From positions 9,960 to 73,959 of IMG/VR virus record IMGVR_UViG_3300045241_000115: DNA of 64,000 nt; one strand, given 5' to 3'. This document shows, piece after piece, positions 4,454 through 60,557 of the stretch (its first letter is position 1; each line of letters opens with the position of its first letter). The position numbers and the translations under genes are program-made. Below the pieces are notes generated by a model. The model was not told the origin of the DNA and did no database searches. It saw only the letters and a program-made list of their open reading frames with translations. The DNA is from a virus.

Positions 4454-4678
4454 ATGCACATCATCCGGCTCCGCGATCCCGAGCGCCGCATGGCGCGCTA
4501 TCACTGTCTCTGCCTGCAAGGGACGCTCTGGCGGCAGGGGGTCGCCGTCGTCCATGAGTGGGGCCGCATCGGCAGCCCGGGCACGGTCCGCAGCGAGGAC
4601 CATGCCGACGAGGCGGCGGCCAGGAAGGCGGTCGCGCGATATCTGCGCGTCAAGCGCCGGAAGGGCTACGGACCATAG
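4454..4678 (+). CDS. WGR-domain protein
   Basis: ARY...Q.TL.....V.EWGRIGSPG...KRRKGY. Confidence 0.85.
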   Translation: MHIIRLRDPERRMARYHCLCLQGTLWRQGVAVVHEWGRIGSPGTVRSEDHADEAAARKAVARYLRVKRRKGYGP

Positions 4679-5482: not shown

Positions 5483-5722
5483 ATGATCAAGGCAATCGCG
5501 CACGGCGCCAACGGTCGCAAAATCCTGGTGCTCGGCCTGAGCTTCGGCGATCTCCGCGAGGCGCCCGGCGACACGTTCATCCGCGTCGTCGACGGCAAGG
5601 AAATGGGGCTGGACATGGACGTGATGATTATCTCCGGCGAGACCGAGGCGCATATGGCGGAAACGCTGGCCGGCATCGGGCCGGATACCAAGGTCCACGT
5701 CAGTCCACGCTCGAGGAGTTAA
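5483..5722 (+). CDS. hypothetical protein
   Basis: GAGGAGG SD; clean ORF. Confidence 0.65.
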   Translation: MIKAIAHGANGRKILVLGLSFGDLREAPGDTFIRVVDGKEMGLDMDVMIISGETEAHMAETLAGIGPDTKVHVSPRSRS

Positions 5723-5727
5723 AGACC

Positions 5728-6075
5728 GTGAACGATAATGACTTTCTACAATGGCTGCACGAGGCTAGCGGTTATCACTTCCCGACTGAGCTGCCCGGCG
5801 GGCGCTACGCCTGCATCAACCGGCGCTGGCACAACACACAGGTCATCACGGGCCGGATGGGAGATCGCACCGGGTTTGCTGACGCTTGGTGATACGATTC
5901 CCCCGAGCATGCCCTGGCAGGGCTGCTGGAATGGCTGGGCCGGGAAGGGGAGGGAGAGCCTGCCGGTTGGTTCCGGCACGCAGCGTCCGGCCGGCGCGTC
6001 TCCCGCTCGCCCGATGAGCGCGATGACGCCGGCAGGCGGGTGGGCGCGGTCGGGGTGACGTATGTGCGCAGGTAA
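5728..6075 (+). CDS. 115-aa ORF with in-frame TGA (5890-5892): candidate selenoprotein or nonsense pseudogene
   Basis: GAGGAG SD and GTG start; reading through TGA fills the gap to the next SD exactly; ...FADAW*YDSPEHALAGLLEW...GEPAGWFRH..SGRR; not in the supplied ORF track. Confidence 0.65.
5898..5931 (+). promoter_or_regulatory. bacterial SECIS-like hairpin
   Basis: TTCC/GGAA, AGCA/TGCT, bulged T, GCCCT/AGGGC, apical loop GGC starting 24 nt after the UGA. Confidence 0.45.
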
Positions 6076-6087
6076 GGAGGAAAATGA

Positions 6088-6318
6088 ATGTCCGACGAGC
6101 CGACGGAAAGGCTGGAACTCAGGATCACGCCAGATCTTTGGCAGGCGATCGACCGTCTGGCGAAGGAAGAGGGCCGCCACATTACATCCATGGCACGCTT
6201 GCTGATCGAGCGGGGCCTATTGGCTACGGCGTCGCGACCGAAACCGCACCATTTAGTCCCTGTCGCGAACCGCTGGGGCCTGGACAAACCACGCAAAAGG
6301 CCACGCTACCCGCGATAA
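6088..6318 (+). CDS. Arc/CopG-like ribbon-helix-helix regulator
   Basis: RLELRITPDLWQAIDRLAKEEGRHITSMARLLIERGL; AAGGAGG SD. Confidence 0.75.
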   Translation: MSDEPTERLELRITPDLWQAIDRLAKEEGRHITSMARLLIERGLLATASRPKPHHLVPVANRWGLDKPRKRPRYPR

Positions 6319-44693: not shown

Positions 44694-46222
44694 TCCTCAT
44701 TCTCCATGCTGCTCGCGGCACCATTGCCGCTCTTGGGAACGGGGGTCGAGACGCCCGGCATTCCTGGACCGACGCCCCCGCCAGCGCCGTTCGTCTTGCC
44801 ACCAGGGGCCGCTCCGGGCATTCCCGGCATCGTCTCTCCAGGCTCGGGCTGCTCCCACGGCGCGGGCGCCTCGCCTGCGTCCTCGATGTCCTGCTCGGAG
44901 ATGTTCGTGAACCTGCCTGTTTGGATGCTGCTCTGTTTCAACTCTTTCAGCGCGATCTGCGTGGTGATCACGCCGGCGTCGTGCAGCAGCTTGATTGTAT
45001 CGGAGTCGCGTTGCGCGACCTCGGCCTTTTCCATCTCGTTCAACTGATAGAGCGAGTTGAAGGTGAACGCGAACGTATCGGGCGTATCGGTGCCAAGCGT
45101 GCTGCGCCATATCACGTCGAACAGCTTGGTCAGCGGCCTGCGCAACCGCGCCTCCTGCTGCGCCTTGATCATGTCATAGTACTGCCGGAGGTCGCTTTCC
45201 CCGGTAGAGTTCAGCCCAGCCGGCGATTGACCGAACAGCCGCACGAGCGGAATGCCGAGGGCGCCCGAGATCTGCTGGCCCAGCATCAGCAACGTCTCAG
45301 ACAGACCAGCGAACGAATACGAGTGCGTTTCGAATTCATCCTCGGCATCGATGACCGTCAGCCCTTCGTTGGACTGATAAATCCGCATCAGTTCCATCAG
45401 CTTGTGGAACTTCTCGGTCAGCTCGGAATTGAATGCGACGAGGTTGCGGTAGTCTTTGACCTTGTACGTGCGCAGATAGGCTTTATAGAGAAGCTGCGCG
45501 GTGCCCATCGTGCCGCTGTCAAATGCGACGAGACGGTCCTGCAACCGCTCGATCACGCTCATGCCCCACAGGTTCTCAGTGATGCGTTGATTGAACGGCA
45601 GCCCGATGCCGTCGAGACGAATGCAGCGGGAGTAATGCACCTTCATGTTCGGCAGATACGGCGCCTGCTGAACCACGTCGTACTGCACGGGCATGCCGTA
45701 ATCGGGGCCGAACTCCTTGACGAGGTTCTGATACGTTGGCTGGACCATCCAACGATCCAGCACGACGAAGCCTTTGAGCTGATCCTTCGCGATGCGGTCG
45801 GTCAGCAAAGGCTGCGCCGTGTCCTGACCGTCGATCATCATGACCATCAGCGCGCCGCCGTACAGCCGGCTCCATTTGATCGTGTCGCCCAAGCTCTGCC
45901 ACATGCAGAGTTCGTTGATGCGGGTGTGGATTTTTTCGATGTCGTCAGGCGGCGTGTCGGAATTCATGATCACGCCGGCCCGCGTCATGTCGTCGGCCAC
46001 CACATCAACCGCGGCGCCGACGACCCACGAGCCGCGATACATCCACTCGAGCTTCTGCCGCAGGCGAGTGAGCGGCAGATAGCCGTAGGTCGTGGCCGCC
46101 ATCAGGTTTTGCGTGCCGATGCCCACGCGCGCGGCGAAGTTCTCCACCGAGTCCGTCGTCATGGCGCCTTCCCATGACGATGCACCGGCGCGCACCCGGA
46201 TGCGTGGGCGCGTGCCTGACAT
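44690..46222 (-). CDS. portal protein (DUF1073-like)
   Basis: MYRGSW....VD..A.DMTR, W.RLYGG, IP..RLFGQSP.GLNSTGESD...YYD. Confidence 0.9.
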   Translation of the reverse strand: MSGTRPRIRVRAGASSWEGAMTTDSVENFAARVGIGTQNLMAATTYGYLPLTRLRQKLEWMYRGSWVVGAAVDVVADDMTRAGVIMNSDTPPDDIEKIHTRINELCMWQSLGDTIKWSRLYGGALMVMMIDGQDTAQPLLTDRIAKDQLKGFVVLDRWMVQPTYQNLVKEFGPDYGMPVQYDVVQQAPYLPNMKVHYSRCIRLDGIGLPFNQRITENLWGMSVIERLQDRLVAFDSGTMGTAQLLYKAYLRTYKVKDYRNLVAFNSELTEKFHKLMELMRIYQSNEGLTVIDAEDEFETHSYSFAGLSETLLMLGQQISGALGIPLVRLFGQSPAGLNSTGESDLRQYYDMIKAQQEARLRRPLTKLFDVIWRSTLGTDTPDTFAFTFNSLYQLNEMEKAEVAQRDSDTIKLLHDAGVITTQIALKELKQSSIQTGRFTNISEQDIEDAGEAPAPWEQPEPGETMPGMPGAAPGGKTNGAGGGVGPGMPGVSTPVPKSGNGAASSMENEE

Positions 46223-47598
46223 CAGAGGTTCGCCCAGACGTTCAGGTTGGTGGCGGCGACGAGCTGAAAGGCGCGCGAGGTCGCGTCCGCGTCATCATCG
46301 TGCGGGAGCATGGGGAAGCCCTCGAGCATCTGAAACCAGCGCTCGTTCCAATCGCCGCGCAGCACGAGCACGTTGCCCGCCTGGGCCTGGGCCGAGAACG
46401 GACTGAACCGCGTGATCTTGTCGCCGGTCTCGGGCGAGTACTCGATAGGGAAGCCGGCCAGCATGCGCACGAAGGCGGCGATCTGATGCTTGCCCGCTTG
46501 GCCTGGATCCTGTGGCAGCCCGACCTTGCAGCCGTAACCGTCCTGGCTGGACGTATTCAGCACGACACGCTCGACATCGGCGGGTGTGCCGCGCATGGCT
46601 GAGGCATGCAGCACGATGTACTGGCCTTGCAGCGTGCGGCCGATCTTGACCGATGCCGTCCAGTCCGGATCGTTCTCTTTGGTCTCCGGCGTCGCCGCAA
46701 GATCCCAGCCGCGTCCGCTCAGCACCAATGCTGGCGGGATGTCCACCACACGAACCCACGAGCGGTTGAAGTACAGGCCAGCGGACGGCCTGATCTTCCA
46801 ATTGCCGTTCAACAGCCTTTCGCGTTCGACCGCCGGCAACATCATCAGATTGCCGAGGTACGCCGGGTCGTTGCGCATCAACGCCGGGTTGTCGGCCAAC
46901 TTGGCGGCTATGAATGTGGCGGATTTGATAGTCGCTCTCGATTGCCCGGTTGCGCGCATCGCCTCGTGTTTGCTGTCGAACCAGAGCAGCCCATCGTCGG
47001 GGCCGCGCACGAAGTAGCGGACGACGCCGGAGCGTTCGGCGATCGGGTAGCCGGACTGCTGGTCGATCCACCAGGCGATGAACTCGGCGACCCACGAACC
47101 GGCATCGGCATTGCAGCTCGCGCGGATGTATGGCCGCACGCCGGTCAGACCGCGGTTGCGGGAGAGCAGGTAGAAGAACTGATGGCGGGTGAACGTGGTC
47201 AGCTCGTCGAAGCAGATCAGCGGAACCTGCGAGCCGTGCCAGTCCAGGACGGTGTGTTCATATTCCAAATGGCTGAGTTTGACGCTGCCGCCGTTGGGCC
47301 AGCGCCATTGCAGCAGATGGTTGATCGGGATGCCCTGGCCGTGCGGGAACACCTTCATGCTCTCGGACCACAGCCCGCCCGGGCGACGGATGTCGGTGGT
47401 GTTGCGGCGGAACATCACCGCATCGAAGCCGCGTGTGCGGGAGGGGTAACGCATCGCTTCGAGCAGGAGCGCCCACGATTTGCCCGAGCCGGCGGCGCCG
47501 CCGAAGATGGCGATGTCGGCCGATGAGCTGAGGAAGGCGAGTTGCGGGCCTTCCTGCGGCATGATGCGGCGTTCGGTTTGTCCGATGGCGGCACTCAT
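46222..47598 (-). CDS. terL: terminase large subunit
   Basis: GGAAGSGKS, ICFDELT, ASCN, WDLAAT, QDPGQAG, HDD.AD. Confidence 0.95.
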   Translation of the reverse strand: MSAAIGQTERRIMPQEGPQLAFLSSSADIAIFGGAAGSGKSWALLLEAMRYPSRTRGFDAVMFRRNTTDIRRPGGLWSESMKVFPHGQGIPINHLLQWRWPNGGSVKLSHLEYEHTVLDWHGSQVPLICFDELTTFTRHQFFYLLSRNRGLTGVRPYIRASCNADAGSWVAEFIAWWIDQQSGYPIAERSGVVRYFVRGPDDGLLWFDSKHEAMRATGQSRATIKSATFIAAKLADNPALMRNDPAYLGNLMMLPAVERERLLNGNWKIRPSAGLYFNRSWVRVVDIPPALVLSGRGWDLAATPETKENDPDWTASVKIGRTLQGQYIVLHASAMRGTPADVERVVLNTSSQDGYGCKVGLPQDPGQAGKHQIAAFVRMLAGFPIEYSPETGDKITRFSPFSAQAQAGNVLVLRGDWNERWFQMLEGFPMLPHDDDADATSRAFQLVAATNLNVWANL

Positions 47599-59150: not shown

Positions 59151-59783
59151 ATGAAGAAGCCCAACCGGGCAGTCCGCGAGGGGCGTTTCGACTGGCTGAA
59201 GCAGCACCGCTTCGATGTCGAGTTCGCCAAACGCATACTGCTCACGACCGGCGAATGCCGGCCGATGTTCGTCATCGTCGGCAAGGTCCGCTCGTCGGTC
59301 ATGCCGGCGCTGTGGAACAGCGACGACGAACGCGACACGATGTATCTGCTGATGACGTTGCTGGCAGCGGCGGACAATGCGGTCGGTCTCGTGTTCATCG
59401 CCGAGGCTTGGATGCGCGGCGTGCTGCAAGTACCGGGAGAGACCACAGCGCAGACGCGCGAGCGCGCTATGCAGGTGGCGCCACGTGACGCGGAAGACCG
59501 GATCGAGGTGATCCACGTCGTGTGCTGTTACCGCGACGATGCCGGCGAGAAGCAGACGTTGTATTCGATCCTCGAGATCGAGCGCGACGCGACCGGCAAA
59601 CCGACCGGGACACGTCCCCGCAACATCGAGGGAATCTCGATGGAGTCGCGGCTGATGACGTGCCTGCCGCCCAAGGAGTTCAGCGAGGACGAATGCGAAC
59701 TGGCGCGTCGGCTGGCGATGGACACCGCCGAGCGCGCCGGCATCAAGCTGAACCTCGTGCACCCTACTGTCGGACACGCCTGA
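59151..59783 (+). CDS. hypothetical early protein
   Basis: EAWM...P....DR.EV. Confidence 0.7.
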   Translation: MKKPNRAVREGRFDWLKQHRFDVEFAKRILLTTGECRPMFVIVGKVRSSVMPALWNSDDERDTMYLLMTLLAAADNAVGLVFIAEAWMRGVLQVPGETTAQTRERAMQVAPRDAEDRIEVIHVVCCYRDDAGEKQTLYSILEIERDATGKPTGTRPRNIEGISMESRLMTCLPPKEFSEDECELARRLAMDTAERAGIKLNLVHPTVGHA

Positions 59784-59870: not shown

Positions 59871-60557
59871 ATGACCAAAGCATATCTGATTGACTCGGCC
59901 GCGCGGGAAGTCCGTGAGGTCGAGCATCATCAGAACCAGAAGCCGACGCTGCAGGACCATCTCGGCGGCTACATCGAGGTCGCCTGGTCCTGGTCAACTG
60001 GCGAGGTCTGCTACGTGGACGAGGAAGGCCTGTTCAAGCCGCAGCGCGGCGGCTACTGGCTGGCAGGGCGTCCTGACCAGCCGATGGTCGGCAACGGCAT
60101 CGTCGTCGGCCGCGAGGTCGAGGACGACGCCGGCTTCCACACGGAGCCTCCGTCGTTCAGTCTCGATTTCCTGCGCGCTCAGGTCGTGTTCATCACGCGC
60201 GCGGACATCGATGCCTGGGCCAAGGGCAACCGCTCGCCCGGCGTGGCGTTCACCGGCTTCGATGCCGGCGGAGGGTTGGCGACGACCGAGGTCATAGCCA
60301 CGATGGGCGAGATTTACGGCGAGATGCCCTCGCCGTCTTATCCCGTGGTGGTCGACTCATTCGGCGCGCAGATCATCGGCGAGGCGACGACCGAACGGGA
60401 CGCGGCGTTGGTGCTGCGGACGTGGTACACGACGGAACGTCCCGGCTCTGGCGTGAAGATCGTCGGCGCCGAAGTCGGCAACGTGCTGATGGGCAAGAAT
60501 GATGCCCAGGGCACCTACGAGCAGGCGATCCAGGCGTGGATCGGGAGGGCGGCATGA
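59871..60557 (+). CDS. DUF3846-like protein
   Basis: LQ..LGGYIE.....YVDEEGL....VGN.IV.G. Confidence 0.7.
   Translation: MTKAYLIDSAAREVREVEHHQNQKPTLQDHLGGYIEVAWSWSTGEVCYVDEEGLFKPQRGGYWLAGRPDQPMVGNGIVVGREVEDDAGFHTEPPSFSLDFLRAQVVFITRADIDAWAKGNRSPGVAFTGFDAGGGLATTEVIATMGEIYGEMPSPSYPVVVDSFGAQIIGEATTERDAALVLRTWYTTERPGSGVKIVGAEVGNVLMGKNDAQGTYEQAIQAWIGRAA

Follow-up and report, generated by a model that had tools for sequence, protein, structure and literature searches.

Is the TGA inside a small phage gene a stop codon, or is it read as selenocysteine (Sec)? The gene occupies positions 5728–6075 of the window, by which we mean the whole 64,000 nucleotide stretch of viral DNA analysed here. The window has a GC content of 63.5% and is part of an IMG/VR virus record (IMGVR_UViG_3300045241_000115) that is 73,959 bases long and rated complete. 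From its GTG the reading frame extends for 115 codons to a TAA at 6073–6075, and contains a single TGA (Table 1). A sequence-only reading had described a good ribosome binding site ahead of the GTG, one in-frame TGA at codon 55 (FADAW before it, YDSPEH after it) and 60 further codons ending in a TAA that abuts the GGAGG of the next gene, and all of these were found in place. The stretch that includes the TGA is reproduced with no differences in a 12.7 kb Logan contig (depth 9.6) from a soil run that is possibly the source sample. When the 54 aa N-terminal part alone was used as a query, the sole match was the window's own ORF.

Table 1. Features of the candidate Sec gene and its surroundings (positions in the window)
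Feature	Position	Strand	Basis or remark
SD-like GAGGAG	5713–5718	+	9 nt before the GTG; sequence reading
Start codon GTG	5728	+	ATG of L071 and L072 aligns with the GTG, which supports the start
N-terminal part, codons 1–54, ending FADAW	5728–5889	+	N-terminal halves of full-length homologues align here
In-frame TGA, codon 55, proposed Sec codon	5890–5892	+	family's conserved Cys column; ADAW before it, YDS after it
C-terminal part, codons 56–115 plus TAA	5893–6075	+	invariant W69 and GEPxGWxRHxxxGRR
Candidate SECIS hairpin AGCA-U-GCCCU-GGC-AGGGC-UGCU	5906–5927	+	present in the minimum-free-energy fold
Arc-like ribbon-helix-helix repressor gene	6088–6318	+	phrog_3431, E=3.4e-9; weak RHH_5; directly after the TAA

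Neither the read-through protein nor any of 111 family members matched a Pfam or PHROG entry. A search of 5.8 billion proteins with the read-through protein returned 21 homologues, 20 of which are full-length (102–155 aa), cover both sides of the TGA and share 42–56% identity with it; the remaining one is 88 aa and lacks the stretch just before the Cys. Cys is found at the TGA column in all 21, and is at least 90% conserved there across the family. The consensus of 111 sequences, DRWCYxxxxxAxxALxxWDGxGEPxGWHRHPxSGRRR, confirms a motif that the sequence-only reading had given for related small phage proteins, and the TGA falls on its Cys, as that reading had supposed. In the protein atlas, a query with the homologue P0002 returned only unnamed clusters that are mostly viral.

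DNA-level scans added 68 IMG/VR loci and 80 metagenome loci, 148 in all; the DNA of the protein homologues (P0002–P0022) was obtained through these locus scans only. The 151 codons scored at the column over the 148 loci comprise TGC (81), TGT (33), TGA (29, including the window) and eight others, so that Cys codons account for 114/151. The search for Cys/TGA pairs across independent contigs, which had been proposed as a check, was thus answered positively: the 29 TGA loci represent 28 distinct sequences from many metagenomes, and wherever an in-frame stop occupies the column it is TGA. The eight other codons specify Asp, Glu, Tyr, Thr or Ser, from which we infer that Cys or Sec is not essential for the fold. 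A few copies in the family look broken or duplicated: one locus (L009, approximately 820–1065) differs from L007 and L008 only by a stop in its N-terminal part, between NH and VAP; in another (L138) the Cys is followed five codons later by a stop; and a third (L109) has two copies of the gene.

L071 and L072, from two further metagenomes, are the closest relatives of the window gene; they are 66–67% identical to it over the full length of the protein and have the TGA at the same codon. The DNA of the genes is approximately 68% identical to that in the window. The flanks of L071 and L072 have nothing in common with the window except the gene itself and one other, and as they are not syntenic with it we conclude that these are different phages. 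A TGA unique to the window genome would have counted against Sec insertion, and with 66% identical relatives in non-syntenic phages this objection falls away.

The candidate hairpin lies 14–35 nt after the UGA. It has a 9 bp stem with a bulged U on the 5′ side, at 5910, and a GGC loop at 5916–5918 that starts 24 nt after the UGA (+27 to +29 when counted from the U of the UGA), in agreement with the bulged U and G-starting loop at +24 that had been read from the letters alone. Its predicted folding energy is −17.6 kcal/mol (z = −1.84), but 8/200 shuffled sequences fold as well, and on its own this energy is not beyond chance; for other hairpins in the family, z ranges from −0.2 to −2.4. The significance of the window hairpin therefore comes only from comparison with relatives. 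The 22 nt hairpin is identical in the window, L071 and L072, and codons 61–66 show no synonymous change, whereas elsewhere about half of the conserved codons differ (p approximately 0.02 for the conserved run, a rough estimate). All nine pairs are possible in just 3/135 family sequences, namely these three. In the 3′ arm, the window has GGG, encoding Gly65, at a position that is Ala in at least 90% of the family, and the alignment suggests that RNA pairing overrides a conserved residue there. Covariation cannot be scored on three identical copies, which leaves conservation as the sole evidence for this type of hairpin. A scan of IMG/VR for exact matches to the hairpin found nothing, and there was no match in Rfam.

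A different hairpin is found in the main group of TGA alleles, which consists of 26 distinct sequences. In these, codons +6 to +10 after the TGA follow the pattern GCx GCy GTC Gab GCv, and columns 16–23 form a helix with columns 28–35 around a tetraloop at +24 to +27 from the U of the UGA. GGUC forms the tetraloop of 17 sequences and AGUU that of four, and a G is present among the first two loop bases in 26/26. Pairs are possible in 79% of the helix cells, compared with 69 ± 1.7% in shuffled alignments, and the covariation score of 0.276, against 0.148 in shuffles, was reached by 0/500 of them. Control helices obtained by sliding the register all scored lower. Coding sequence rich in Ala codons (GCN GCN) has an inherent tendency to pair, and a slide of −3 still gave 72% paired cells. 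The pair 21–30, which joins two synonymous third-codon positions, occurs as GC (10), CG (7), AU (3), GU (1) and UG (1), and is intact in 22/26 sequences when 11.9 are expected (p<1e-5), while p=5e-5 for the pair 18–33; both values are from permutations that ignore relatedness among the sequences.

The main-group helix also tracks the TGA. The full 5 bp core is present in 21/26 main-group TGA alleles, in 0/10 of the non-TGA alleles that are nested in or adjoin the TGA groups and in 6/96 of the other non-TGA alleles. It is missing from nested non-TGA alleles even where the amino acids are similar (e.g. DAAVSAM in L038). More generally, 79% of the TGA alleles and 13% of the Cys alleles are predicted to form a stable hairpin without gaps, at −8 kcal/mol or below. 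The predicted main-group stem is therefore backed by compensatory changes, and goes with the UGA alleles while being mostly missing from the others. The expectation that a hairpin should be conserved with the TGA alleles is borne out by its fixed distance from the UGA, by the covariation in the main group and by its rarity in non-TGA alleles. Two kinds of hairpin seem to be in use within the family: one has an 8 bp type stem with a GGUC or AGUU tetraloop, the other a GGC loop on a 9 bp stem that contains a bulged U.

The bSECISearch criteria for a bacterial SECIS element are a stem-loop 3′ of the UGA, an apical loop approximately 16–37 nt downstream and a G in the first two loop positions. Both the main-group loop (+24 to +27) and the GGC loop of the window (+27 to +29) meet them. 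With an in-frame UGA kept in independent sequences within a conserved ORF, coding conservation on both sides of it, a Sec/Cys pair and, at a suitable distance, an in-ORF stem-loop whose apical loop is G-rich, the pattern fulfils every sequence-level criterion for a bacterial selenoprotein gene. There are no selenium, expression or proteomic data, and we consider it likely, though not established, that codon 55 is read as Sec. Comparison with relatives thus supports the Sec insertion that had been proposed from the window alone. The gene would then encode a 115 residue phage accessory protein of an unnamed family, with the UGA at codon 55 decoded as Sec by the SelB and tRNA-Sec of the host, and the hairpin at 5906–5927 would act as a bacterial-type in-ORF SECIS. 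Binding of the hairpin by SelB and the insertion of Sec rather than another residue are inferred, as there are no binding data, and the presence of selABCD in the host is likewise an inference.

No tRNA-Sec was found in the window's record or in four large TGA-bearing records, where the matches were Ser tRNAs. In the absence of a phage tRNA-Sec, decoding would depend wholly on host machinery. Two TGA-allele phage records, those of L046 and L069 (G001, 166 kb, and G002, 176 kb), contain many tRNA genes, with four tRNA-Ser and no tRNA-Sec. The large terminase gene (46222–47598, − strand) is closest to those of Rhizobium phages (55–56%), which only hints at a proteobacterial host for the virus. 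Two archaeal viruses, of Methanoculleus, give the next best terminase matches (50% over 94% of the length), and the portal protein is closest to those of Acinetobacter and Burkholderia phages. In cellular genomes, a family member was found at one locus, in a Verrucomicrobiota MAG, where a Cys allele is nested among the TGA alleles. This MAG contains a tRNA-Sec (68.5 bits) and selB (330 bits), which we regard as weak support from a single case; no further carrier turned up among 401 Verrucomicrobiota genomes. Of the cultured carriers, three annotated loci were read at the column, in jumbo phages of Caulobacter and Sinorhizobium and in a plasmid of Skermanella, and all three have Cys. There were also tblastn matches in Brevundimonas phages and further plasmids, which are not included in this three-locus count.

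When the window was scanned for further read-through candidates that combine a TGA with a hairpin, nothing convincing was found. The TGA at 59781–59783 (+ strand), which ends the ORF at 59151–59783, is followed by a 10 bp hairpin with a GCGA loop (−14.9 kcal/mol) at the same spacing as the hairpin in the Sec gene, and the next ORF (59871–60557) is in frame with the one that it ends. There are no test data for this element, which is probably an intergenic hairpin rather than a Sec site. Three ORFs upstream of the Sec gene, a stand-alone WGR-domain protein of 74 aa is encoded at 4454–4678 (+ strand; PF05406, E=2.4e-10), and its relatives are small phage or metagenome proteins that carry the JGI name 'predicted DNA-binding WGR domain protein'.

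The main rival to the Sec reading is programmed read-through of the UGA by a near-cognate tRNA (Trp, Cys or Arg), with the hairpin slowing or perturbing termination and a mixture of the 54 residue and full-length products as the outcome. It would explain the conserved downstream frame, the conserved UGA and the conserved 3′ structure equally well, and it is helped by the fact that the Sec machinery of the host is unverified and that no phage tRNA-Sec was found in the records checked. However, there is no reason why a codon that is merely read through should coincide with a conserved Cys, and the specific replacement of Cys by UGA, seen here against 114 Cys loci, is a signature of Sec. If Cys were the residue wanted, TGY would supply it without the cost of a stop. 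The hairpin, moreover, matches the E. coli fdhF element, for which SelB binding is proven, both in geometry and in its GGUC loop. On balance, we judge read-through without Sec to be improbable.

Alternatively, the UGA may simply terminate translation, as a nonsense allele or as the break in a split gene, leaving a 54 residue fragment as the only product and the remainder as a decaying remnant or a separately translated piece. Only a single-base change separates TGY from TGA, TGA is a working terminator in these genomes, and gene callers do split the gene, the database entry for which in the IMG/VR record is a 54 aa ORF only. Against this, the TGA is kept in 28 distinct sequences, with TGA alleles persisting to approximately 30–40% protein identity, and the downstream frame is intact in 28/28. 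Between the window and L071, the half of the protein after the TGA is better conserved (75% aa identity) than the half before it (57%), and in the post-TGA half 22 codons differ synonymously only and 15 non-synonymously. Immediately downstream of the TGA no start codon is found in frame, and both halves belong to one predicted domain. From these substitution patterns the part of the gene after the TGA is inferred to be under purifying selection, and the recent TGY-to-TGA nonsense mutation that had been held out as the alternative to Sec insertion is contradicted by those 60 codons. We therefore rate termination at codon 55 as highly improbable.

That TGA has been reassigned throughout these genomes (by code 4 or 25, or by a suppressor tRNA of the kind found in stop-codon-recoded phages) is barely conceivable: recoded phages are known, but 21/29 TGA-allele genes use TGA as their own terminator, which indicates an unchanged genetic code, the genomes are GC-rich (63.5% in the window), TGA loci and Cys loci are similar in mean GC (0.616 and 0.592), the 64 kb window has no tRNA genes, and the TGA aligns with Cys rather than with Trp or Gly. 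Truncation and a change of code are essentially excluded, and Sec at codon 55 remains the reading that we prefer.

How often the family may have switched from Cys to Sec is less clear. The tree separates the window clade (SH-aLRT 99) from the main TGA group and places it inside a clade (95) whose other members have Cys; at least three changes of state are needed to account for the well-supported branches. A topology with every TGA allele in one clade was not rejected by an AU test on 103 usable columns (p=0.34), and the number of Cys-to-Sec switches is consequently unresolved. Taken together, the position of the window clade and its different hairpin suggest, but do not show, that its TGA arose independently. 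A broader proposal can be put forward only tentatively, and we do not ourselves lean towards it: that phages encode genuine selenoproteins, that this family took up Sec by means of two in-ORF SECIS hairpins of distinct structure, perhaps more than once, and that the full-length protein, made only in a Sec-competent and selenium-replete host, would act as a sensor of host state.

An AlphaFold2 run with the 111 sequence alignment predicted one compact domain for the read-through protein (mean pLDDT 97, pTM 0.88), with a helix, a sheet of four strands, a second helix and a loop-rich C-terminal part in that order. In the model, codons 1–54 supply the first helix and the sheet, residue 55 lies within strand 52–56, and both halves of the gene contribute to the one domain. 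A sequence-profile search of the PDB returned no matches and Foldseek found none in the PDB; the best hit in a VIA-wide fold search (Z 5.2) was not significant, and a BFVD fold search gave nothing significant, the best hit being an uncharacterized phage protein. The predicted layout of sheet plus helix and a GRIG-like motif before the Cys resemble the WGR domain (PF05406), and PARP WGR domains are among the weak VIA hits (Z 3.5–3.8, within noise). Membership of the WGR family was not supported, with hmmscan matching 0/111 members and a profile–profile comparison (hhalign) giving a probability of 0.7%. No neighbouring genes are conserved around the family loci, and the top clusters there were antisense shadows of the gene itself. 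That residue 55 might be a redox-active or nucleophilic catalytic residue is an inference only, from the general rule for Sec/Cys pairs. Combined with the invariant basic GEPxGWxRHxxxGRR motif, the Cys or Sec may suggest a catalytic or redox residue beside a surface that binds phosphate or nucleic acid, though this too is inference.

If the Sec reading is correct, such genes would be systematically split or truncated by phage gene callers, as in the 54 aa stub here, and some phage genes would rely on the Sec machinery and the selenium supply of the host for their expression and host range. A compact, confidently modelled domain of 115 residues with a single Sec or Cys and no known fold would be a target in the search for new selenol- or thiol-based activity, and the occurrence of two hairpin types in one family would amount to a natural experiment on the requirements of SelB.

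Reports of bacteriophage selenoproteins were not found in full-text searches of the literature, in a review of recoding (PMC8310308), in a 2026 paper on a bacterial selenoprotein database or in a 2025 predictor paper; the review names two poxviruses only and no bacteriophage example. The viral selenoproteins it describes are the glutathione peroxidases of molluscum contagiosum virus and fowlpox virus (PMC8310308). Like these, the family described here is virus-encoded and would need the Sec machinery of the host, and the fowlpox SECIS is also located in the coding region (PMC8310308). However, the poxviruses are viruses of eukaryotes, their selenoprotein genes are captured cellular GPx genes, and recognition is of the eukaryotic SECIS/SBP2 kind.

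The closer comparison is with bacterial selenoprotein genes, in which a SECIS within the ORF is read by SelB and for which E. coli fdhF is the prototype (PMC4605307, PMC12013277, PMC13326102). The fdhF SECIS has GGUC at +22 to +25, a sequence that we confirmed in 5,413 E. coli genomes. As in genes of the fdhF type, the phage family has an in-frame UGA where homologues have Cys, a stem-loop in the coding sequence right after the UGA and a G in the first loop positions. The GGUC loop of the main group is the same tetranucleotide as in fdhF and only 2 nt further from the UGA, but it is a tetraloop closed by a C-G pair rather than the larger loop of fdhF, and the GGC loop of the window is 5 nt further out than the fdhF loop. 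The family also differs from bacterial selenoprotein genes in being found in a virus of bacteria and having no Pfam or PHROG name, and the binding of SelB is inferred. Sec decoding is already known from cells and from two poxviruses; what would be new here is the setting, an unnamed protein family in a virus of bacteria, while the mechanism would be the known one of SelB and SECIS.
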